Positions 37,976 to 49,518 of a DNA stretch of 64,000 nt are shown here, piece by piece. The stretch lies in assembly GCF_054482595.1 (NCBI RefSeq), contig NZ_CM137008.1. One strand, given 5' to 3'. Made by a program: the position numbers and the translations under genes. Position 1 is the first letter of the stretch. Each line of letters opens with the position of its first letter. Below the pieces are notes generated by a model. It was given only the letters and a program-made list of their open reading frames with translations. It had not been told where the DNA came from and did not search any database.

Positions 37976-38068
37976 TTTTTCTGATTGCCAATTAATATTA
38001 TCAATTTCCGCTAATAACAATCCCGCGATATAGTCTCTGCATCAGATACTTAATTCGGAATACCAAAC

Positions 38069-38704
38069 GTGTTTTCTTATTACTTTCAAGGTCTTGCGCT
38101 TGGCGCAGCTATGATCCTACCGCTCGGTCCACAAAATGCTTTTGTGATGAATCAGGGCATTCGTCGTCAGTACCACATTATGATTGCCTTACTTTGCGCT
38201 ATCAGCGATTTGGTCCTGATTTGCGCCGGGATTTTTGGTGGCAGCGCGTTATTGATGCAGTCGCCGTGGTTGCTGGCGCTGGTCACCTGGGGCGGCGTAG
38301 CCTTCTTGCTCTGGTATGGTTTTGGCGCTTTTAAAACAGCGATGAGCAGTAATATTGAGTTAGCCAGTGCCGAAGTCCTGAAGCAAGGAAGATGGAAAAT
38401 TATCGCCACCATGTTGGCAGTGACCTGGCTGAATCCGCATGTTTACCTGGATACTTTTGTTGTACTGGGCAGCCTTGGCGGTCAGCTTGACGTCGAACCA
38501 AAACGTTGGTTTGCGCTCGGGACAATTAGCGCCTCTTTCCTGTGGTTCTTTGGTCTGGCTATTCTCGCAGCCTGGCTGGCACCGCGCCTGCGCACGGCAA
38601 AATCACAGCGCATTATCAATCTGGTAGTGGGATGTGTCATGTGGTTTATAGCCTTGCAGCTGGCGAGAGACGGTATTGCTCATGCACAAGCCTTGTTCAG
38701 TTAG
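38069..38704 (+). CDS. argO: Arginine exporter ArgO (LysE family, GTG start)
   Basis: 211-aa hydrophobic ORF matching ArgO/YggA. Confidence 0.93.
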
Positions 38705-38796
38705 GCGCTATCTGATGGAAAAATAAAACAGAGGCGCTAAGCTTGCCTCCAGAGGTCCTGAATTTTAGGCAAGTCAAATAACACGGAGAGACTAAC

Positions 38797-39537
38797 GTGA
38801 AGTTCAAAGTTATCGCCCTGGCGGCATTAATGGGTATTAGCGGGATGGCAGCGCAGGCTAACGAATTGCCGGATGGACCGCATATTGTCACCTCCGGTAC
38901 GGCAAGCGTGGATGCGGTGCCAGACATTGCCACTCTTGCGATTGAAGTCAATGTGGCCGCAAAGGATGCCGCTACTGCCAAGAAACAGGCGGATGAGCGC
39001 GTCGCACAATACATTTCCTTCCTTGAACTCAATCAGATCGCGAAAAAAGATATCAGCTCAGCGAACTTACGCACCCAGCCAGATTATGATTATCAGGATG
39101 GTAAAAGTATCCTTAAAGGCTACCGCGCTGTGAGAACGGTGGAAGTCACGCTCCGTCAGTTAGACAAACTGAATTCCTTGCTGGATGGCGCGCTGAAGGC
39201 GGGTCTTAACGAAATTCGTTCTGTGTCGCTGGGCGTGGCGCAGCCGGATGCCTATAAAGACAAAGCACGTAAGGCAGCGATTGATAACGCGATTCATCAG
39301 GCGCAGGAACTGGCGAACGGCTTTCATCGTAAACTGGGGCCGGTATATAGCGTGCGCTACCATGTTTCCAACTATCAGCCCAGCCCAATGGTGCGGATGA
39401 TGAAAGCCGATGCCGCGCCGGTCTCAGCCCAGGAAACTTACGAGCAGGCCGCTATTCAGTTTGATGATCAGGTCGATGTGGTCTTCCAGTTAGAACCTGT
39501 GGATCAACAACCCGCTAAAACACCTGCAGCACAATAA
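38797..39537 (+). CDS. yggE: DUF541/SIMPL periplasmic protein YggE (GTG start)
   Basis: 246-aa ORF with signal peptide matching YggE. Confidence 0.9.
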   Translation: MKFKVIALAALMGISGMAAQANELPDGPHIVTSGTASVDAVPDIATLAIEVNVAAKDAATAKKQADERVAQYISFLELNQIAKKDISSANLRTQPDYDYQDGKSILKGYRAVRTVEVTLRQLDKLNSLLDGALKAGLNEIRSVSLGVAQPDAYKDKARKAAIDNAIHQAQELANGFHRKLGPVYSVRYHVSNYQPSPMVRMMKADAAPVSAQETYEQAAIQFDDQVDVVFQLEPVDQQPAKTPAAQ

Positions 39538-39704
39538 TACTTGTAGCCCGACGTATTCGTCGGGCTAATGCCTTTACCCGATATTGCCTCCTTTTTCTGT
39601 AATTTTCTGTAAAACCATGACGTAATCACCTATCTTTGCTCGCGGTTTCATCAAGGATAGGCTGACTGAAACGGTTAAGCGGACAAGGATGCGGGGGAGG
39701 GGGG

Positions 39705-40601
39705 ATGGACATTTTTATTTCGAAAAAGATGCGCAATTTCATTTTATTAGCGCAAACCAATAATATTGCCCGGGCGGCAGAAAAAATCCATATGACGGCT
39801 TCGCCATTTGGTAAAAGCATTGCCGCGCTGGAAGAACAAATTGGCTATACGCTATTTACCCGCAAAGATAATAATATCAGCCTCAATAAAGCCGGACAGG
39901 AACTGTATCAAAAACTGTTCCCGGTTTATCAACGGCTTTCTGCGATTGATAATGAAATCCATAACTCAGGGCGTCGTTCACGAGAAATTGTGATTGGCAT
40001 AGATAATACTTATCCGACAATTATTTTCGATCAGTTGATTAGTCTCGGAGATAAGTATGAAGGCGTGACCGCCCAGCCAGTTGAGTTCAGCGAAAACGGC
40101 GTTATCGATAATCTTTTTGACCGCCAGTTAGATTTTATTATCTCCCCACAGCATGTATCTGCACGAGTTCAGGAACTGGAAAACCTGACTATCAGTGAAC
40201 TACCACCGCTGCGATTGGGCTTTCTCGTTTCTCGCCGTTATGAAGAGCGTCAAGAGCAAGAGCTGCTTCAGGAGCTGCCCTGGCTACAAATGCGCTTTCA
40301 AAACCGGGCTAACTTCGAAGCAATGATTGATGCTAATATGCGACCTTGTGGGATCAATCCAACCATTATTTATCGTCCCTACAGTTTTATGGCCAAAATC
40401 AGCGCCGTGGAGCGCGGACATTTTCTGACGGTGATCCCGCATTTTGCCTGGCGACTGGTGAATCCGGCAACGCTGAAATATTTTGATGCGCCGCACAGGC
40501 CGATGTATATGCAGGAATATCTTTATTCAATCAGAAATCATCGTTATACCGCCACGATGCTTCAGCATATTGCTGAAGATCGTGACGGGACAAACCATTA
40601 A
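39705..40601 (+). CDS. ygfI: LysR-family transcriptional regulator YgfI
   Basis: 298-aa ORF with N-terminal HTH; position next to scpC. Confidence 0.85.
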   Translation: MDIFISKKMRNFILLAQTNNIARAAEKIHMTASPFGKSIAALEEQIGYTLFTRKDNNISLNKAGQELYQKLFPVYQRLSAIDNEIHNSGRRSREIVIGIDNTYPTIIFDQLISLGDKYEGVTAQPVEFSENGVIDNLFDRQLDFIISPQHVSARVQELENLTISELPPLRLGFLVSRRYEERQEQELLQELPWLQMRFQNRANFEAMIDANMRPCGINPTIIYRPYSFMAKISAVERGHFLTVIPHFAWRLVNPATLKYFDAPHRPMYMQEYLYSIRNHRYTATMLQHIAEDRDGTNH

Positions 40602-42076
40602 CCCAGCATCGAGCCGGTTGCAATTAAATTACGGTGTAAGTCGAAGACGTGGCTAAGATCGTGGTGAATATGTCCGCCAGGCGCATTTTCCAGATAGCGA
40701 TGCAGATAATCCCGATACATAGGATGTGCACAATTATCAATGATCGTGCGGGCGCGTTGAAGCGGGGAAAGACCGCGCAGATCGGCGATCCCTTGTTCGG
40801 TGATGATCACTTTGACGCTGTGTTCGCTGTGATCAACATGGCTGCACATTGGCACGACGGTTGAGATCTTGCCTTCTTTAGCAATCGATGGGGCCATAAA
40901 GATCGACAGATACGCGTTGCGTTCAAAATCACCGCTGCCGCCGATGCCGTTCATCAGATCGACCCCGGCTACGTGCGTTGAGTTGGCATGCCCGTAAATA
41001 TCAAACTCCAGGCCGACGTTCAGAGCGATGACGCCCAGACGACGGATGATTTCCGGGTTATTGGAAATCTCCTGCGGACGCAACACAATGCGGCTGGCAA
41101 AGTAATCCATATTGTCGTAAATCTTGCGCAGGGAATCGGCCGAGATTGTCAGGCTGGAGGCGCTGGCCCCGCTGATTTTGCCGGTTTCCAGTAAATGCAC
41201 CACCGATTCCTGTAGCACTTCCGAATACATCATAAACGGAGGAATTTCCGGGTTTTCCCCCAGACGCGCCATTACCGCATTATTGATATTGCCCACGCCA
41301 CTTTGCAGCGGCAGAAATTCCGGCGGAATACGCCCATGCGCCATTTCCTGCAATAAGAACGTGACCACGTTATCGGCAATCTGCTGGCACATGGGATTTT
41401 GCTTATCCAGCATATTACCGGCGTCGGGCAAGTTGGTTTCCACGACGGCGACAATCTTTTTCGGATCGATTTGCACATAGCGGGTACCGACGCGATCCAT
41501 TGCATGGAAGATCGACACGCTATTACGCCGCGGTGGCGCGCCAGGAATCACAATATCTGCCAGTTCTGCAACGCGCGGATCGTGATAGTGATTAAGTTCA
41601 ATGATCACTTTCTTCGCCCGCAGCAGCCATGTCGGCGCATTACCGATCCCGCTGGTTAACCAGACTCGACCATCCGGTGCCAGTGCCGATGCTTCAATGA
41701 CGGCAACATCAATGTCGCCGAAGAAACCGTAATTGACCATTTGCGCCACTTCGCTCAAATGCAGGTCAACGAAACTCACCGCGCCCTGATTGATCTTTTT
41801 ACGTAAACCGGACGATGTTTGATATGGCGCACGCCAGGAAACAGCATCAGCGTCAGAAAGTACATCGTCAGCGGCGGCGCTGATTGACGCACCCGTCAGC
41901 AGGCGAATTTGATACGGCTTTTTGGCCTCATGCTGTTCGTTAGCTCTGCGGGCAATCGCGGTGGGTAGGGCTTTCGGTGAACCCGCTGGGGTAAAGCCGC
42001 TAAATGCCACCATGTCGTTATGCTGGATAATTTCTGCCGCTTCATCGGCGGTCATCCTTGTCCACTGAGTTTCCAT
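40598..42076 (-). CDS. scpC: Propionyl-CoA:succinate CoA transferase
   Basis: 492-aa ORF matching ScpC/YgfH. Confidence 0.95.
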   Translation of the reverse strand: METQWTRMTADEAAEIIQHNDMVAFSGFTPAGSPKALPTAIARRANEQHEAKKPYQIRLLTGASISAAADDVLSDADAVSWRAPYQTSSGLRKKINQGAVSFVDLHLSEVAQMVNYGFFGDIDVAVIEASALAPDGRVWLTSGIGNAPTWLLRAKKVIIELNHYHDPRVAELADIVIPGAPPRRNSVSIFHAMDRVGTRYVQIDPKKIVAVVETNLPDAGNMLDKQNPMCQQIADNVVTFLLQEMAHGRIPPEFLPLQSGVGNINNAVMARLGENPEIPPFMMYSEVLQESVVHLLETGKISGASASSLTISADSLRKIYDNMDYFASRIVLRPQEISNNPEIIRRLGVIALNVGLEFDIYGHANSTHVAGVDLMNGIGGSGDFERNAYLSIFMAPSIAKEGKISTVVPMCSHVDHSEHSVKVIITEQGIADLRGLSPLQRARTIIDNCAHPMYRDYLHRYLENAPGGHIHHDLSHVFDLHRNLIATGSMLG

Positions 42077-42099
42077 TTTTACTCCTTCGTTCGCAGGGA

Positions 42100-42885
42100 T
42101 TAATGACCAACGAAATTAGGTTTACGTTTTTCGAGGAAAGCGTTCATCCCTTCCTGGTAATCTTCGCTGTCATAAACGGCGCGGCGCATCCCCTGAATAC
42201 GTTCAAATTCATCGGAGTTCATGGTGTGTGCTTCGCCCAGTACACGCAGCTCTTCTTTGATAACGGCAATGGCTAACGGCGCTTTCTCAGAGATGTGGTG
42301 CGCCATTTGTAAGGTGAAATCTTCCAGTTCTTCCACTTCCACAACATGGTTGAGGATGCCGACAGCCAGCGCGCGCTGGGCGGTGATTGGCGAAGCGGTA
42401 AAAATCAGCTCTTTGACAATGTGGAAGCCCGCGTCGCGGGTCAGGTTGTGAATGCCGACCAGGTTATACGGGACGCCGAGGTTTACAGGTGTCATTGAGA
42501 AGGTTGAGGTACTGGCGGCGATGATCAGATCGGAACTCATGATCATTTCAAATGCGCCACCCCAAACACTACCTTCCACCATCGAAATGATCGGTTTCGG
42601 GAATTTTTGGATCATGCGGGTGATTTGACGCAACGGATCATCATAGGAGAGCGGATCGCGACCGCCAGACGGCAGTTCGTGAATATCGTGACCTGCGGAG
42701 AAGACTTTGGATCCACTCGGCGCGCGCAAAATGATACAGCGAATTTCCGGTCGGTTGAGATCGCTTAATGCCTGCATAAGATCATCAATAAAGACTTTAC
42801 TTAAGGCATTAAGTTTGCGGCCATAGTTAAACTCAATGACCGCCACTTTGTTGATAGTGACAACGTTCACATACTGATAAGACAT
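42100..42885 (-). CDS. scpB: Methylmalonyl-CoA decarboxylase (crotonase family)
   Basis: ORF 42100..42927; start at MSYQYVNVVTINKVAVIEFNYGRK... giving 261 aa. Confidence 0.93.
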   Translation of the reverse strand: MSYQYVNVVTINKVAVIEFNYGRKLNALSKVFIDDLMQALSDLNRPEIRCIILRAPSGSKVFSAGHDIHELPSGGRDPLSYDDPLRQITRMIQKFPKPIISMVEGSVWGGAFEMIMSSDLIIAASTSTFSMTPVNLGVPYNLVGIHNLTRDAGFHIVKELIFTASPITAQRALAVGILNHVVEVEELEDFTLQMAHHISEKAPLAIAVIKEELRVLGEAHTMNSDEFERIQGMRRAVYDSEDYQEGMNAFLEKRKPNFVGH

Positions 42886-42895
42886 AAAAATTCCT

Positions 42896-43891
42896 TTAAT
42901 CAAAATATTGCGTCTGGATAAATTCACTGAGCTGCCGCAGGCCGGTGCGCGGTGAGAGCGTATTGTTTTTGACCGCTAAAAGCGTCTGGCGGTAATAGCG
43001 ATCGAAATCTTCATTCGCGAACAGGTGATTCAGTACTTCTTCTTCGGTTTGTTTACGCAGCCATTCCACCGATTGTTGTTGCCGCACTTGCTGTAAACGA
43101 CCACTGGCAGTTAGCGCGGTTTTGAAGTCGATGATGGCGTGCCAGATCTCATCGATTCCACGTTTTTCCAGTGCGCTACAAGTCAGAACCCGTGGCTGCC
43201 ATTCGTCGTATTTACGTCGCAGAATATGCAGGGCACTCTCGTACATATGCCGGGCAATGGCGACATTGGTATGGTTATCGCCATCGTCTTTGTTGATAAC
43301 GATCAGATCAGCCACTTCCATCAGCCCTTTTTTAATGCCCTGCAGATCATCGCCGCCACCGGCAATTTGCAACGAGATAAAACAGTCCACCATGCGGGCG
43401 ACTTCCGTTTCCGACTGCCCGACGCCAACCGTTTCGACAATCACTACGTCATAACCCGCCGCTTCGCATAACAGCATTAATTCCCGCGCTCGCTGACTGG
43501 CACCGCCCAGATGACCGGAGGATGGTACCGGGCGAATAAACGCCGTCTCGGCACGCGCCAGGTCATTCATGCGGGTTTTATCCCCGAGAATGCTACCGCC
43601 AGTGACCGGACTGCTGGGATCGACCGCAATAACCGCAACTTTTAATCCATCACGAATCAACAACATGCCAAAGGCTTCAAGAAAGGTACTTTTCCCCGCG
43701 CCGGGTGTGCCGGTAACGCCCAGTCGCAGGGCGTTACCGCAGTACGGCATAATGGCATCAAGCAGTTGCGTACTTAGCGCCTGATGACGCGGGTGACGGC
43801 TTTCCACCAGCGTCATGGCCTGGGCGAGTGTGGCACGCTCACCCTGACGTAAGCGGCGAATACTTTCTGCCAGCGTGGCTTCATTAATCAT
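42896..43891 (-). CDS. argK: MeaB-like G-protein chaperone of methylmalonyl-CoA mutase
   Basis: 331-aa ORF with P-loop [12 protein letters not shown]. Confidence 0.93.
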
Positions 43892-46028
43892 GATGCTGGC
43901 TTATCAGATTCAGTACGTCGCGCACACTGTCGAGCATAGGTGTACCTGGACCATAAATCGCCGCCACGCCGCGCTCTTGCAGGAAGGCGTAATCCTGCGG
44001 TGGAATGACGCCACCGGCGACTACGCAGATATCTTCGCGTCCCCATTTTTTCAGCGCTTCGACCAGTTCCGGGATCAGCGTTTTATGACCGGCAGCCAGT
44101 GAGGATGCGCCCACTACGTGAACGTCATTTTCTACTGCCAGGCGGGCGATCTCTTCAGGTGTAGAGAACATCGGGCTTAAATCTACGTCGAAACCGAGAT
44201 CGGAATAGGCGCTGGCGATCACTTTCGCGCCGCGATCGTGCCCATCCTGGCCCATTTTGGCGATCAGAATGCGCGGGCGACGACCATTGTCGACAAGGAA
44301 CTGCTCCGTTTGCGCAACAATGGCATCGAACTCGGAGGCCGATTTCTCAGATTGATGATAGCTTTGCGCAATCACGCCGGTAACACACTGGCTTGGCACC
44401 AGATAACGGTCGAAAGCGGCTTCCAGCGCATCGGAAATTTCACCCAGGGTGGCGCGAACGCGAGCGGCATTAACAGCGGCAGCCAGCAGGTTTTCGTTAT
44501 GCTGGGCGGCGTGAGTCAGGGCGTTCAACGCGGCGGTTACGGCGGCATTATCACGGGTGGCGCGAATGCGTTCCAGCGAAGCAATTTGCTCGTTACGCAC
44601 CATCACGTTGTCGATCTCAAGTACATCGGTTTCGTCTTCGTGATCCAGTTTGTACTTGTTGACACCAACGATGACACGTTTGCCCTGGTCGATAAGCGAC
44701 TGTTCGCGCGCTGAGGCCTCTTCGATCATTCGTTTTGGCAGACCTGCTTCGATCGCTTTCGCCATGCCACCGGCTTCGTCGATCTGTTGGATAATAGCTC
44801 TGGCTTGTTTGACGATTTGATCGGTCAGCGACTCAACGTAATAGGATCCGGCCAGCGGATCGACGGTGCGGCAGAGTTCTGATTCTTCCTGGATGATGAT
44901 CTGGGTGTTGCGGGCAATGCGTGCTGAGAAATCGGTAGGCAAACCAAGCGCTTCGTCAAAGGCGTTGGTATGCAGTGACTGAGTACCACCCAGCGTCGCA
45001 GCCAGTGCTTCAATGGTGGTGCGGATAACGTTGTTATACGGATCCTGTTCAGTCAGGCTCCAGCCTGAGGTCTGGCAGTGGGTACGCAGCGCCAGTGATT
45101 TCGGGTCCTGTGCGCCAAATCCACTGACCGCTTCGCTCCATAAATAACGTGCCGCACGCAACATGGCGACGTTCATAAACAGATCCATGCCGATGCCGAA
45201 GAAGAACGACAGGCGAGGAGCGAAGTCATCAATTTTCAGTCCGGCAGAGATTGCTGCTTTGATGTACTCAATCCCATCAGCGAGCGTAAATGCTACCTGC
45301 TGCACGCAGTTGGCACCCGCTTCACCCATGTGGTAACCGCTGATACTGATGGTATTAAATCGCGGCATGTTGCCGGAACACCAGGCGATGATGTCGGCGA
45401 TAATGCGCATTGACGGTTTTGGCGGGTAAATATAGGTGTTGCGGCAGAGGTACTCTTTGAGGATATCGTTCTGAATGGTGCCGGTCAGTTTATCAGGTGT
45501 AACACCTTGCTCTTCCGCGGCGACGATATAAAACGCCAGTACTGGTAGCACTGCGCCATTCATGGTCATCGAAACCGACATTTTATCCAGCGGGATCTGG
45601 TCGAACAGGACTTTCATATCTTCCACGGTGTCGATAGCGACGCCCGCTTTGCCGACGTCGCCCGCCACGCGCGGGTTATCGGAGTCGTAGCCTCGGTGGG
45701 TGGCAAGGTCAAACGCAACGGAAAGACCTTTTTGCCCGGCGGCCAGGTTACGGCGATAAAAAGCGTTGGACTCTTTTGCTGTTGAAAAACCAGCATACTG
45801 ACGGATGGTCCACGGTTGGGCGGTATACATAGTGGCACGCGGGCCACGAACGTAGGGCGGCAAACCAGGAAGGGTACCTGTCACCTCCAGATTATCGAGA
45901 TCGGCTTCGGTATACAGCGGCTTGATGGCGATCTCTTCCGCGGTTTGCTGAACCAGCGAGTCGACAGTTTTCTCCCGACGGCTCAATTCCTTGTTGGCAA
46001 GCTGTTGCCACTCCTGCACGTTAGACAT
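43884..46028 (-). CDS. scpA: Methylmalonyl-CoA mutase (sleeping beauty mutase)
   Basis: ORF 43884..46049; start at [23 protein letters not shown]... giving 714 aa; B12-binding C-terminal domain. Confidence 0.95.
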
Positions 46029-46179
46029 TATTTGCTCCGTAAAACGCAATCAAAATGAGGGTATTTGCGCCTACGGTGAGCTTTTTACGTGGGTTTGTCG
46101 CCAGCAAAAAAAATGCATTCAGACGTCGTTTTTTGCCGCCTGAGATTTGTCTATTTTGTGATGTGATTCAAGGAATACA

Positions 46180-46218
46180 AAAAGAAGTGAGGACAACGCC
46201 TGATATGTGCTATCAGGC
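46180..46218 (-). terminator. Putative argP terminator
   Basis: Palindrome gcctgata-tgtgc-tatcaggc 14 nt past the argP stop, followed on the minus strand by a T-rich stretch. Confidence 0.45.
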
Positions 46219-46231
46219 ATTATTTGATGGA

Positions 46232-47125
46232 TTAATCCTGACGAAGGACTTTGTGACCATAATCGAGTAACGCATCAGTGACTTTACGCATCATGCGGCT
46301 TTCAGGTGCAAAGCGGTGCCAGTAAAGCATTCGGCGTTGAAATAGCCCAGGCGTTAAGTCAATCAGTTCACCGCTGGCCAGCTCTTTCTCGATTTGCAGG
46401 TGCGGGATCATACAGCAGGTGGTGCCCTGGCGAGCAAGTTGTACGAACGCTTCTGAAGAATTAACGATATGGCAGGGCACGCTGCCTGGAGGCAGATCGA
46501 AGTTTTGCTGCAAAAAGGCCTGGTGCATATCGTCAAGATGGTCAAACGCGACCACTGGCGCTTTCAGTAATGCCGAACGCGTTACGCCGTTAGGGAAATA
46601 TTTTTCGGCAAAGGGTTTTGAGCTGACGAACAGATAGTCGAGCGCACCAAGTTTATCGACAAGACAACTCGGCAGCGCCTGATGTTGAATACTCACCGCG
46701 CCGACCACTTCGCCGCGGCGCAGACGTTCCTGAGTGCGGGTTTCATCTTCTACCTGCAAGTTGAGGCGGATAGGCGAATCAGCCAACACAGGAGCCAGTG
46801 CAGGAAGCAACCACGTCGCCAGACTGTCGGCGTTGACCGCCAGTGAAAGCAGCAGCGGAGTCGAACCGGTTTGTTCATCGCCCAGCCACTCTTCTTCCAG
46901 CAACTCCACCTGGCGCAGCAGTGCCAGCAGTTTTTGACCTTGTTCCGTTGGGCGCGGCGGTACGGTACGCACCAACAGCGGCTGCCCGAACATATTTTCC
47001 AGTTGCTTAATGCGCTGTGAGACGGCTGATTGTGTAATGCACAGCTTTTGTGCCGCGCGCTCAAATCCTCGTTCACGTATTACCGCATCCAGTGCCTGTA
47101 ATGTTCTGTAGTCCGGGCGTTTCAT
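46232..47125 (-). CDS. argP: LysR-family regulator ArgP (IciA)
   Basis: ORF 46232..47314; start at the internal Met ([43 protein letters not shown]...) giving 297 aa. Confidence 0.95.
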
Positions 47126-47195
47126 TGCTGTTGTCTGCTCCTGGTAAATGCTTTTTCCTGCACTATGACATAATTTTGCGTTGGGTACAGAGCAT

Positions 47196-48521
47196 TTAAC
47201 GCATACAAAAGCGGTCGTAATGGAAGTTTTGGCTGGCAATCCCATTTTCATATAACCCTTTGCTGAGCGCTTTGGCAAAACTCTGTGGGCCGCAAAACCA
47301 GAAATGGGTGTCACCTTTATTTGCTATTTTATCAGTAAGATAGTGCGACTGTAGGCGCTCACCTTTATGCGCATCAAGCAGATGCAGTGTGACACTGGCC
47401 TGGGCACAAAGTGAGGTAAGTTTATCAACATACCATGCATCCTCGCTTCGGCTGACGCAATACCAGAGATCCACAGGAACACGGGACGCGCCATGCTGGT
47501 TCAGATACTCAAGCTGGGCGATAAAGGGGGTAATGCCGATGCCTCCAGCTATCCATACCTGGCGGGAGCAAGGGAGAGTAAAATCAAACTTTCCCCATGG
47601 CCCTTCAACGAGAGCGGACTGGCCGATTTTTATCGAGGATGCCAGAGTCGAGGTATAATCCCCTAAATTTTTGATGGCAAAGCGCAACGTGTTCTTCTCT
47701 ATTGCATATGAAGCGATAGTAAAAGGGTGAGACTCTTTACTGTGTGCGAACGTTAAGAATGCAAACTGACCCGGAGAATAGTCGATGGCATGTTCCAGCT
47801 CCAGTATGACTTCGGTAATTTGTCCCGGATGGTTAACAATACTTTTAATGGTGGCCTGATGCTTGTTTTTATTACCGTTTAATTTCAGCAGCGAAATGAA
47901 AGCCACAAAGACGCCTGGGATAGTAATTAAAATTAATAAATACGCAGCAGGAGTTTCCCACCAATATGATTTAAACAGTGCAGTAAATACATGAAAAGCA
48001 ATTGCCAGATAAAAAACGGGGAACAAACGGTGAACAAGATGAAATAAATGATAGGGAACTTTTTTGCTTAGAGACACGAAAACCATCGCTATCATAATAA
48101 ACATTGCACATTCACCCGCTAACAATCCCGCATGAAGCCAATTTTCTTGTACTGGCGTCAGGTTAATATCAACGATTTTACCAGGGTGAGTAAGCCAGCC
48201 AAAGGCGACGAATAACTGGGGTAATTTTTCATCCAGCCAGTGGGCGAAAGCAAAAGCGATGGCGCATATTCCTGCCCACTTATGTAATCGCCATGCTTTA
48301 TCCAGACCGCCCAGCATCTTGTTAAGCCATGATGAACGCAACGATAAGCACATCGTCAGCGTCATCAGACACCACGCAAGGGTTCCCGTAAAAAAGAGTG
48401 TGTTTTGTCGAATGAACCATATTAGCGCGATTGGCTTTTCACGAAAAATATCGCCGGATGACAAAAAAATAATACATGCGACAAAGCAAACCAACGTACC
48501 TGTAAGATTAGCTTTTTTCAT
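47196..48521 (-). CDS. NOX/ferric-reductase-like membrane flavocytochrome (six TM helices plus FAD/NAD(P)H-binding domain)
   Basis: N-terminal hydrophobic half with His pairs H-x13-H ([15 protein letters not shown]) and H-x12-H ([14 protein letters not shown]); C-terminal half with HPFT flavin motif, GGIGITPF nucleotide motif and C-terminal CGP; AT-rich codon usage. Confidence 0.8.
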
Positions 48522-48583
48522 TTTTTTATTTCATTTTGGCAGCGGAGCATAGAACAGTTCCATGCTCCCATTAAATAGAGTGA

Positions 48584-48844
48584 TTATTTATAGAAAATCA
48601 CAGTGGCGTGGATATAATTTTTACCGGAGAAAGAACTGATGTAGTAATTGCTGGCTTGTAACTCTTCCGCTTTCTCTTTGATTTGGCTTTCAACGCCCGC
48701 TGGGTTGCTATTGTGTGTAGACATGCTCACTTTTGATAACTGTTCAAGATTATTGTCCGGTTTGTGTATCTCGGTTGCTGCAAATGCATGTCCTGTGAGA
48801 GTGCAAAGAAATAACGCGGTAAATAAATTTTGCTTAATAGACAT
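48584..48844 (-). CDS. Secreted DUF1471 (YhcN/BhsA-like) small protein
   Basis: 86-aa ORF with signal peptide (MSIKQNLFTALFLCTLTGHAFA) and DUF1471-like C-terminus (SFSGKNYIHATVIFYK); AAGGAG SD 7 nt upstream; 16 nt after the upstream stop. Confidence 0.75.
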   Translation of the reverse strand: MSIKQNLFTALFLCTLTGHAFAATEIHKPDNNLEQLSKVSMSTHNSNPAGVESQIKEKAEELQASNYYISSFSGKNYIHATVIFYK

Positions 48845-48860
48845 AATAACTCCTTTTATA

Positions 48861-49490
48861 TTAAACGTAATGATTAAATACTTGTGTAATAAGATCAGGG
48901 ATTTGCGCTAATGCATTTTGCTCGGCGAGTTCGCGTCCCGGTTGGGTTTTGTCGACACCTTCTGCACGTAAAATATGTGTATTGGTAATGCCCATTAATT
49001 TCAGCGTGGCTTGCAGATAACTTTCCTGATGATCCAGCGCCAGATGTGCTTCATCGCAATAGATACCGCCGCGCGTCGAGACAATAAACGTCGGTTTATC
49101 CTTCAGTAACCCAACGGCGCCTGCAGAGCTAAAACGAAACGTTAAACCAGCCTGACACACCTGATCTATCCAGGTTTTGAGGCCAGATGAAACGCTGTGA
49201 TTAATCATCGGCGCGCCAATAATGAGCACATCGCACGATGCCAGTTCATCAATAGCGGCGTGGATATCATTCACCTCCTGCTGAATTTGTGCGTTCTTGC
49301 ACTCTGCTTTATCGCAAAGCGCCAGAAAGGTTTCTTCACGCAAATGGGGCGGCGGCGTCAGGCCAACGTCGCGATGAATAATTGTGGCTTGAGGAAAGTG
49401 TTGGCAAAGCGCTTCTACCAGCGTCTGGCTTAATTTCCGCGAACTTGAATGCTTAAGCATTGGGCTACTGTCGATATGAAGAATTTTCAT
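48861..49490 (-). CDS. AzoR-family FMN-dependent NADH azoreductase / quinone reductase homolog
   Basis: 209-aa ORF (MKILHIDSSPMLKHSSSRKLSQTLVEAL...) with the AzoR/AcpD flavodoxin-like pattern; first gene of a three-gene minus-strand operon. Confidence 0.8.
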   Translation of the reverse strand: MKILHIDSSPMLKHSSSRKLSQTLVEALCQHFPQATIIHRDVGLTPPPHLREETFLALCDKAECKNAQIQQEVNDIHAAIDELASCDVLIIGAPMINHSVSSGLKTWIDQVCQAGLTFRFSSAGAVGLLKDKPTFIVSTRGGIYCDEAHLALDHQESYLQATLKLMGITNTHILRAEGVDKTQPGRELAEQNALAQIPDLITQVFNHYV

Positions 49491-49497
49491 GGGCTTG

Positions 49498-49518
49498 CTC
49501 TCATTTCTGCGATGAGAG
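49498..49518. promoter_or_regulatory. Perfect 7-bp inverted repeat in the divergent LysR/operon intergenic region
   Basis: CTCTCAT-N7-ATGAGAG, 8 nt upstream of the AzoR-like start codon; candidate LTTR operator or RBS-sequestering hairpin. Confidence 0.4.

Follow-up and report, generated by a model that had tools for sequence, protein, structure and literature searches.

A stem-loop within the last srsR codons as a probable 3′-end signal of the convergent sbm operon in Escherichia coli

When two convergent genes have the letters of their stop codons in common, it is not obvious where the mRNA of either should end. This is the situation of srsR (ygfI) and scpC (ygfH) in the window considered here, that is, the whole stretch of 64,000 nucleotides that was analysed. 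There are two parts to the question: (i) whether the four-gene operon that ends with scpC has a 3′-end signal of its own; and (ii) whether such a signal would serve one strand or both.

The locus is the standard compact E. coli succinate-to-propionate (‘sleeping beauty mutase’) operon, scpA-meaB-scpB-scpC (Table 1). Gene names were cross-checked against the RefSeq record of E. coli XH990, which is 100% identical to the window, and all five genes lie above curated NCBIfam equivalog/subfamily cut-offs. Each of srsR, scpC, scpB, meaB and scpA has an ATG start, a TAA stop and no internal stop codon; the operon genes show full-length profile coverage and carry no pseudogene flags in the identical RefSeq record. 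The description of scpA, meaB (argK), scpB and scpC as intact, given in a first-pass annotation of this DNA, is therefore upheld by ORFs that lack internal stops and by family scores that all exceed their cut-offs. For scpB the start is the annotated ATG, the NF008506 profile beginning at residue 15 of a longer GTG ORF. The product of srsR contains the Pfam domains HTH_1 (PF00126) and LysR_substrate (PF03466). The same annotation spoke of overlapping junctions throughout the operon, which holds for scpA/meaB, where the meaB start and the scpA stop overlap by 8 bp (ATGATTAA, 43884-43891), but not for meaB/scpB and scpB/scpC, which are separated by gaps of 10 bp and 23 bp, respectively; Shine-Dalgarno-like sequences are found in both gaps. 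From the tight spacing and the literature on the operon (PMC3850637, PMC5512728), we infer that the four genes are co-transcribed as one unit that converts succinate to propionate.

Table 1. Genes and other features of the srsR/scpC locus, in window coordinates.
Feature	Position	Strand	Remarks
scpA (sbm)	43884..46028	-	adenosylcobalamin-dependent methylmalonyl-CoA mutase, 714 aa; NF006944, 1251 bits (cut-off 876)
meaB (argK/ygfD)	42896..43891	-	mutase-associated GTPase (MeaB-type), 331 aa; NF006958, 495 bits (cut-off 329)
scpB (ygfG)	42100..42885	-	methylmalonyl-CoA decarboxylase, 261 aa; NF008506, 487 bits (cut-off 257)
scpC (ygfH)	40598..42076	-	propionyl-CoA:succinate CoA transferase, 492 aa; TIGR03458, 754 bits (cut-off 659)
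srsR (ygfI)	39705..40601	+	LysR-type transcription factor, 298 aa, convergent to scpC; NF047842, 635 bits (cut-off 425)
TTAA common to both stop codons	40598..40601		srsR TAA, 40599-40601; scpC TAA, reverse complement of 40598-40600
Stem-loop in scpC-sense RNA, just past scpC stop	40540..40598	-	within srsR codons ~279-297
U-rich stretch beyond extended stem	40528..40539	-	GAUUUCUGAUUG in E. coli; UGAUUUUUCAGC in most other genera
argP-scpA intergenic region	46029..46231	-	argP 3′ hairpin (~46198-46218) and putative scpA promoter

The overlap of the srsR and scpC stop codons on opposite strands had also been pointed out earlier, and it agrees with both the gene coordinates and the annotation of MG1655, where the entire layout (b2917-b2921) is annotated identically with the 4-bp overlap at 3066277-3066280. 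The layout, overlap included, is already known, and the earlier finding as stated adds nothing to the E. coli reference annotation. It has a simple consequence: because the two ORFs have 4 bp in common, complete srsR and scpC mRNAs must overlap. The recurrence of the overlap in MG1655, in nearly all E. coli and in 36 of 42 other Enterobacterales genomes argues that it is not a matter of chance.

Within E. coli, 5422 of 5426 complete genomes contain the scpC/srsR junction with an identity of at least 95%. At least 80% of the segment 39500-46300 is held by 4274 of the 5426, and about a fifth have a scpA′-′scpC deletion; an intact operon is the majority state in the species, not a universal one. 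A survey of other Enterobacterales was queried with SrsR, so that co-occurrence was counted from the srsR side. It recovered 42 species-level genomes, which range from Escherichia to Yersinia, and in every one of them srsR is followed by a convergent scpC-scpB-meaB-scpA. The overlap takes the form YTAR in 36 of these (TTAA in 21, CTAA in 6, TTAG in 3 and CTAG in 6). The module occupies at least three different chromosomal contexts, with upstream flanks that differ in Yersinia and Kosakonia. This distribution shows that the five-gene arrangement is ancestral and that the stop overlap has usually been kept.

The first-pass annotation further stated that no terminator lies between the two genes. 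This is trivially right, there being zero intergenic DNA, but it is misleading, as a strong stem-loop is located in the last srsR codons. In the scpC sense the structure begins 2-12 nt downstream of the scpC stop, and it is an imperfect hairpin of about 25 bp, with a long stem that contains a bulge and internal loops and with a core in which 40549-40567 pairs with 40571-40588 around a loop at 40568-40570. Its folding energy is -30.5 kcal/mol (z -6.8; none of 200 shuffles was as stable), and the same palindrome folds at -25 kcal/mol in the srsR sense. When z-scores were scanned over 10 kb (38000-48000), the strongest outliers were the hairpins after the yggE, argP and scpC stops, with no others as structured.

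The operon thus has the stable stem-loop shortly past the last gene’s stop that an intrinsic terminator calls for. The extended stem ends 0-3 nt before the U-rich stretch, which reads UGAUUUUUC in most genera; U content after the extended stem is 5/10 in E. coli and 6/10 in most other genera, compared with the U-tract of ~7-8 nt of an intrinsic terminator. By canonical standards the U-tract is weak, and the site was passed over by a consensus terminator scan. A bidirectional terminator would lie in the 3′ UTRs of both genes; the hairpin consists of srsR coding sequence and precedes the srsR stop. A search of 39000-47500 against Rfam gave zero family matches, even at E = 1.

For srsR, no terminator was detected within scpC: the plus strand at 40599-40700 has a z-score of +0.1, and no z-score outlier follows downstream. 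C-rich, G-poor, rut-like stretches were also sought, and the C/G ratio downstream of both stops (~0.64-1.24) is not distinctive. Two other ideas about this region were discarded. A weak terminator-like site at 40402-40417, flagged on both strands by the consensus scan, folds like its shuffles (z -0.8). That the srsR ORF was extended late, across what had been an intergenic terminator, is not supported: the LysR_substrate profile would extend approximately to the present C-terminus, and the 298-aa length and the overlap are both ancestral.

Comparison among genomes indicates that the stem-loop is conserved in part of the family. In the hairpin alignment 83.3% of cells are paired, versus 29-52% in slid controls, and 11 of 20 pairs have changed on both sides, a count reached by 1 of 500 shuffles; the covariation score was reached by none of the 500. 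We consider the covariation evidence moderate, because the +3 slid control is also rich in double changes (8 pairs) and because the structure was defined on the E. coli sequence. The 33 hairpin-bearing sequences contain 67 G.U cells (36 without one fixed pair) versus only 10 C.A cells. The G.U cells are compatible only with scpC-sense RNA, and the sequence evidence favours function on that strand alone. In an ESNIH1-like lineage the hairpin is marginal (z -2.3), and it falls short of significance in Yersinia (z -0.9), Kosakonia pseudosacchari (z -0.5) and one genome with a 128-bp spacer (z -0.2); we therefore reject the idea that it is universal at this position. It follows from the same genomes that the stop overlap persists without the hairpin.

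These exceptions bear on the possibility that the palindrome has no function as nucleic acid and arose as a by-product of shared ancestry and of the conservation of a peptide at the SrsR C-terminus, and that termination by Rho within srsR is diffuse. Hairpin and encoded peptide (HRYTATMLQHIAEDRDG) are kept by the same clade, and protein constraint accordingly explains part of the hairpin’s conservation. Moreover, Yersinia and two Kosakonia genomes still have the overlap but lack the hairpin or have one that does not reach significance, RNAalifold applied to all 43 sequences did not return it as a consensus, and other parts of the operon have raw folding energies that are about as low. Against this, the synonymous sites of the hairpin codons are among the most constrained in srsR: synonymous diversity in codons 279-295 is 0.25, compared with a gene mean of 0.42 (rank 2 of 282 windows, permutation p = 0.0003), whereas the last 17 codons of scpC are synonymously unconstrained (0.53, rank 454 of 476). 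A by-product would also leave unexplained the compensatory double changes, such as a Gln-to-Arg replacement in Salmonella SrsR that is offset by a synonymous Ala change with pairing preserved, and a composition-corrected z-score that is equalled only by the 3′ hairpins of two neighbouring genes. On balance we regard this explanation as rather improbable, though it is one to be taken seriously. In another scenario the junction works as an interference switch or as a bidirectional terminator of the collision type, at which the hairpin pauses RNA polymerase in both directions and srsR and the operon limit each other. The palindrome is stable on both strands, it lies at the boundary of a convergent pair, like the elements of Ju et al. 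2019 and Wang et al., the tail-to-tail layout is invariant among the 42 genomes, and srsR mRNA is ~25-fold higher in stationary phase (PMC9181523). However, the hairpin on the srsR strand comes before the stop; transcripts terminated at that point would lack a stop codon, and the hairpin should be melted by ribosomes as they translate. The asymmetry between G.U and C.A, too, supports one strand only. Both units are weakly expressed, Rho termination regions are found upstream in the operon, at the starts of scpA and scpB, in exponential LB cultures (Adams 2021), and gene pairs with low expression are those in which collision terminates transcription least efficiently (bioRxiv 10.1101/2022.10.23.513370). 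We think a switch of this kind quite unlikely. The Term-seq supplements of Adams 2021 list zero 3′ ends for scpC or ygfI, and the SMRT-Cappable-seq supplements have zero entries for either gene. Transcriptional interference between srsR and scpC, as suggested in the first-pass annotation, is possible given the arrangement of the genes.

It would be more surprising still if the inverted repeat acted as DNA instead of RNA, as a cruciform or as a protein-binding site, for example the operator of a dimeric regulator such as SrsR, and we give this very little credence. It is true that a near-perfect inverted repeat of 14-18 bp adjoins a transcription-factor gene, but the repeat is unlike the footprinted SrsR box, TCAGATTTTGC; matches to that box in the window are no more frequent than expected by chance, and neither the scpA promoter region nor the hairpin contains one. 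The sbm operon is absent from the published SrsR targets, gSELEX and ChIP-exo having reported no binding at the locus. In addition, pair-preserving double changes and single changes of the G.U type are expected of RNA pairing and not of a sequence-specific operator. LysR-type regulators usually control adjacent genes. One could suppose that srsR and the operon form a conserved module, in which the terminator resides in the last codons of the regulator, convergent transcription couples the expression of the two units by polymerase collision or through their complementary 3′ ends, and the pathway finds in SrsR the dedicated regulator or sensor that had long been missing. The linkage holds in 42 of 42 genomes, yet the genes are convergent and not divergent, and the neighbourhood of the scpA promoter lacks an SrsR box; we find the proposal doubtful as a whole. 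Such strict co-occurrence across Enterobacterales suggests a functional tie that published studies of the SrsR regulon have not seen.

The explanation that we favour, and consider reasonably probable, is that this is a standard sbm operon lying tail to tail with srsR, with its 3′-end signal inside the srsR coding sequence and without a comparable signal for srsR. The operon’s signal would then not be missing, but written into the opposing gene. The stem-loop is probably either the operon’s 3′-end terminator or a protective hairpin; most plausibly it would be a weak intrinsic terminator, a 3′ stem-loop that shields Rho-terminated transcripts from exonucleases, or both at once. A defined operon 3′ end is probably located inside srsR because a stem-loop is combined there with a U-rich stretch and is an outlier like the yggE and argP hairpins; operon mRNAs would be predicted to end ~60-75 nt inside srsR. 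Transcripts of srsR, for their part, would have to run antisense into scpC until they are halted by Rho or by an opposing polymerase, and ribosomes on the srsR tail would keep the palindrome from acting on that strand. The two mRNAs would thus have complementary 3′ ends, and effects of collision or of double-stranded RNA are conceivable, though probably small given the poor expression of both units in laboratory conditions. An implication of the favoured explanation is that the locus may offer a clean example of a 3′-end RNA signal that constrains the synonymous sites of an opposing gene. The probable end of the sbm operon mRNA is also relevant to engineering of the operon for production of propionate, 1-propanol and PHBV.

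Finally, the locus may be compared with known systems. It matches E. coli K-12 b2917-b2921 in genes, order, strands, lengths and junctions (including the 8-bp scpA/argK and 4-bp scpC/srsR overlaps), and MG1655 b2916-b2922 in synteny, with argP upstream of the operon and srsR and yggE downstream. It differs from K-12 in strain-level substitutions (~98.9% DNA identity), in the SrsR tail, which is TNH here and TSH in K-12, and in the flank beyond argP. In E. coli the steady-state 3′ ends of Rho-dependent mRNAs are marked by stable stem-loops without U-tracts (Dar & Sorek 2018, PMC6061677). The structure described here resembles these protective stem-loops in being stable, just past a stop and followed by a poor U-tract, as do the yggE and argP hairpins; unlike them, this candidate element is positioned inside the coding sequence of a convergent gene rather than in an intergenic region. 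With canonical intrinsic terminators it shares a hairpin 10-12 nt past the stop and an extended stem that closes 0-3 nt before a U-rich stretch, but the stem is long and is interrupted by a bulge and by internal loops, the tail in E. coli amounts to no more than GAUUUCUGAUUG, and the consensus scan does not call it. Bidirectional terminators have reportedly been described between convergent gene pairs by Ju and colleagues. Hairpin elements in such positions work as pause/collision terminators (Wang et al., bioRxiv 10.1101/2022.10.23.513370). Like the bidirectional elements (Ju et al. 2019; Wang et al.), the srsR/scpC hairpin lies where two units meet, can fold on either strand and differs from a classical terminator; in contrast to them, it is upstream of the srsR stop and would not make a productive srsR terminator, and the evidence favours its action on one strand, that of the operon.

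The segment 39500-46300 of this Escherichia coli window matches strain XH990 at 100% identity and K-12 derivatives at about 98.9%. The six genes listed below each have an ATG start, a TAA stop and no internal stop codons, and the curated NCBIfam cut-offs for methylmalonyl-CoA mutase, MeaB GTPase, methylmalonyl-CoA decarboxylase, succinate CoA transferase and SrsR are all passed, which bears out the first-pass annotation of the four operon genes as intact. The frame check also agrees with its claim that the srsR stop codon (TAA, 40599-40601) and the scpC stop codon (complement of 40598-40600) share TTAA at 40598-40601. The operon's own junctions, described there as overlapping, are so only at scpA/meaB, where 8 bp are shared (ATGATTAA); meaB/scpB and scpB/scpC are separated by gaps of 10 and 23 bp, each with a Shine-Dalgarno-like sequence. 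The meaB coding sequence also contains a perfect 11-bp inverted repeat (CGGTAACGCCC ... GGGCGTTACCG), whose folding z is -3.8 for the + and -2.3 for the - strand. Beyond argP, 47196-49500 (-) encodes a ferric-reductase-like membrane protein, a DUF1471 protein and an FMN-dependent NADH-azoreductase; in K-12 this position is occupied by the yqfE pseudogene and rpiA.

Features of the srsR-sbm region in window coordinates; for genes, the ORF listing, the RefSeq annotation of the identical record and the frame check are concordant
Feature	Position	Strand	Remark
srsR (ygfI)	39705-40601	+	gene
scpC	40598-42076	-	gene
scpB	42100-42885	-	gene
meaB (argK)	42896-43891	-	gene
scpA (sbm)	43884-46028	-	gene
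argP	46232-47125	-	gene
Hairpin after yggE stop	39544-39567	+	strong z-score outlier, poor U-tract
Hairpin after argP stop	46198-46218	-	strong z-score outlier, poor U-tract
Hairpin after scpC stop, extended stem	40540-40598	-	strong z-score outlier, poor U-tract
Inverted repeat in meaB	43711-43721/43729-43739
Rho termination region in scpA	about 45981		MG1655 3060897
Rho termination region in scpB	about 42846		MG1655 3064032

Because MG1655 is annotated with an identical arrangement, 4-bp overlap included (3066277-3066280), and 5422 of 5426 complete E. coli genomes carry a single copy of the 101-nt junction at no less than 95% identity, this description is right but already known: it is an accurate account of a well-known, fully annotated locus, with nothing new as stated. 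The intact operon is the majority state (4274/5426). In 1152 complete genomes (~21%), including ST131 EC958, a deletion corresponding to window positions of about 40751-45100 has joined part of scpA to the final 153 nt of scpC, leaving the TTAA junction and the hairpin in place (for example at 4099-5154 of L003, a locus from another strain). Strain 98194 has an internal stop in srsR in addition to this deletion, and a 187-kb plasmid from a pig isolate (match H20, NZ_CP137739.1, 80377-81013) carries a yggE copy and the 5′ part of srsR at 99.4% identity.

Two small additions, both of a known kind, are the embedded 3′ hairpin and a conserved five-gene module. Searching one genome per species with SrsR recovered 42 loci, from Escherichia, Citrobacter, Salmonella arizonae and diarizonae, the Klebsiella oxytoca group, Kosakonia, Yersinia, Yokenella, Superficieibacter and Pluralibacter, and from two records titled Aeromonas sp. 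RU39B and Martelella alba. All 42 have convergent scpC-scpB-meaB-scpA after srsR, also where yggE is not the upstream neighbour: kduI and hxpB precede the module in Yersinia frederiksenii (L037, 1-4000), and bamA-like and hns-like genes in Kosakonia sacchari (L034, 1-4000). These differing chromosomal contexts suggest that the module moves or is retained as a whole. Stop codons overlap by 4 bp in 36 loci (TTAA 21, CTAA 6, TTAG 3, CTAG 6); the exceptions are overlaps of 15 bp (two, Salmonella) and 30 bp (two, Kosakonia), one case of abutting stops and one 128-bp spacer. The tail-to-tail overlap is therefore an old and stable feature of the module.

The first-pass annotation saw no terminator between the convergent genes. 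There is indeed no intergenic DNA at the junction, but in scpC-sense RNA a long stem-loop directly follows the scpC stop, within srsR codons about 279-297. Its core pairs 40549-40567 with 40571-40588 (dG -30.5 kcal/mol, z -6.8; equalled by 0 of 200 dinucleotide shuffles), and in a composition-corrected scan of both strands of 38000-48000 the strongest outliers are the hairpins just after the yggE, argP and scpC stops. The minimum-energy fold closes the extended stem 0-3 nt ahead of a U-rich stretch that reads GAUUUCUGAUUG in E. coli and UGAUUUUUCAGC in most other genera. The site was not called by a consensus terminator scan and matches no Rfam family, and no transcript 3′ end was found for it in the published Term-seq and SMRT-Cappable-seq tables consulted.

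Several observations point to selection on this hairpin as scpC-strand RNA. Across a 43-sequence alignment, 83.3% of hairpin cells are paired, compared with 29-52% in slid controls. Changes on both sides affect 11 of 20 pairs, a count reached by 1 of 500 shuffles (covariation score, 0 of 500), for a structure defined on the E. coli sequence and with one slid control likewise rich in double changes. In one such case, E. coli CUUCAGCA/UGCUGAAG corresponds to CUUCGGC/GCCGGAG in Salmonella, which in SrsR amounts to a Gln-to-Arg replacement paired with a synonymous Ala change. The 33 hairpin-bearing sequences contain 67 G.U cells (36 when one fixed pair is left out) versus only 10 C.A cells, which favours scpC-sense RNA because G.U is compatible with that strand alone; folding energies are also consistently lower there. 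Synonymous diversity in srsR codons 279-295 is 0.25, compared with 0.42 on average across the gene (rank 2 of 282 windows, permutation p = 0.0003), and it is high (0.53, rank 454/476) in the last 17 scpC codons across the TTAA, an internal control. The hairpin does not reach significance in three cases, namely Yersinia (z -0.9), Kosakonia pseudosacchari (z -0.5) and the 128-bp-spacer genome (z -0.2); it is marginal in an ESNIH1-like lineage (z -2.3) and is not returned by RNAalifold over all alignment sequences. The clade that retains it is also the clade that retains the encoded SrsR peptide.

This hairpin probably sets the 3′ end of the sbm operon mRNA, 60-75 nt inside srsR, either directly or after trimming. 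One route would be weak intrinsic termination; another would resemble what is described for E. coli mRNAs that depend on Rho, which at steady state end shortly after stable stem-loops lacking a U-tract (PMC6061677). For cells growing exponentially in LB, two Rho termination regions are reported, one 47 nt into scpA (Rho score 11) and one 39 nt into scpB (4.9; Adams 2021, supplementary file 2). Little transcription may reach the junction under these conditions. The two regions may help to keep the operon 'sleeping'; both were measured with 800-nt windows, so the one in scpA may instead mirror argP read-through.

On the opposite strand, no unusual RNA structure lies downstream of the srsR stop (z +0.1; no outlier in the 38000-48000 scan) and no terminator of its own is detectable for srsR, whose transcripts, up about 25-fold in stationary phase (PMC9181523), presumably read antisense into scpC. 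With 4 bp common to both ORFs, complete srsR and scpC mRNAs must overlap, so the separate, non-overlapping 3′ ends named in the first-pass annotation are not to be expected; what matters is how far the mRNAs overlap and with what effect. Transcriptional interference, raised in the first-pass annotation, is possible but unsupported. SrsR may or may not regulate the adjacent operon: the strict linkage (42/42) suggests a functional tie, but the operon is absent from the published gSELEX (yfdO/P, fucA/P, dinJ, bluR, paaZ/A, cdgI) and ChIP-exo (dhaKLM) targets, and no footprinted SrsR box was found near the scpA promoter.

Finally, the arrangement differs from the bidirectional terminators of convergent gene pairs. 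Here the palindrome ends 6 nt before the srsR stop codon, so on that strand translating ribosomes should melt it, and termination there would yield a non-stop mRNA; for these reasons it would not be productive for srsR.
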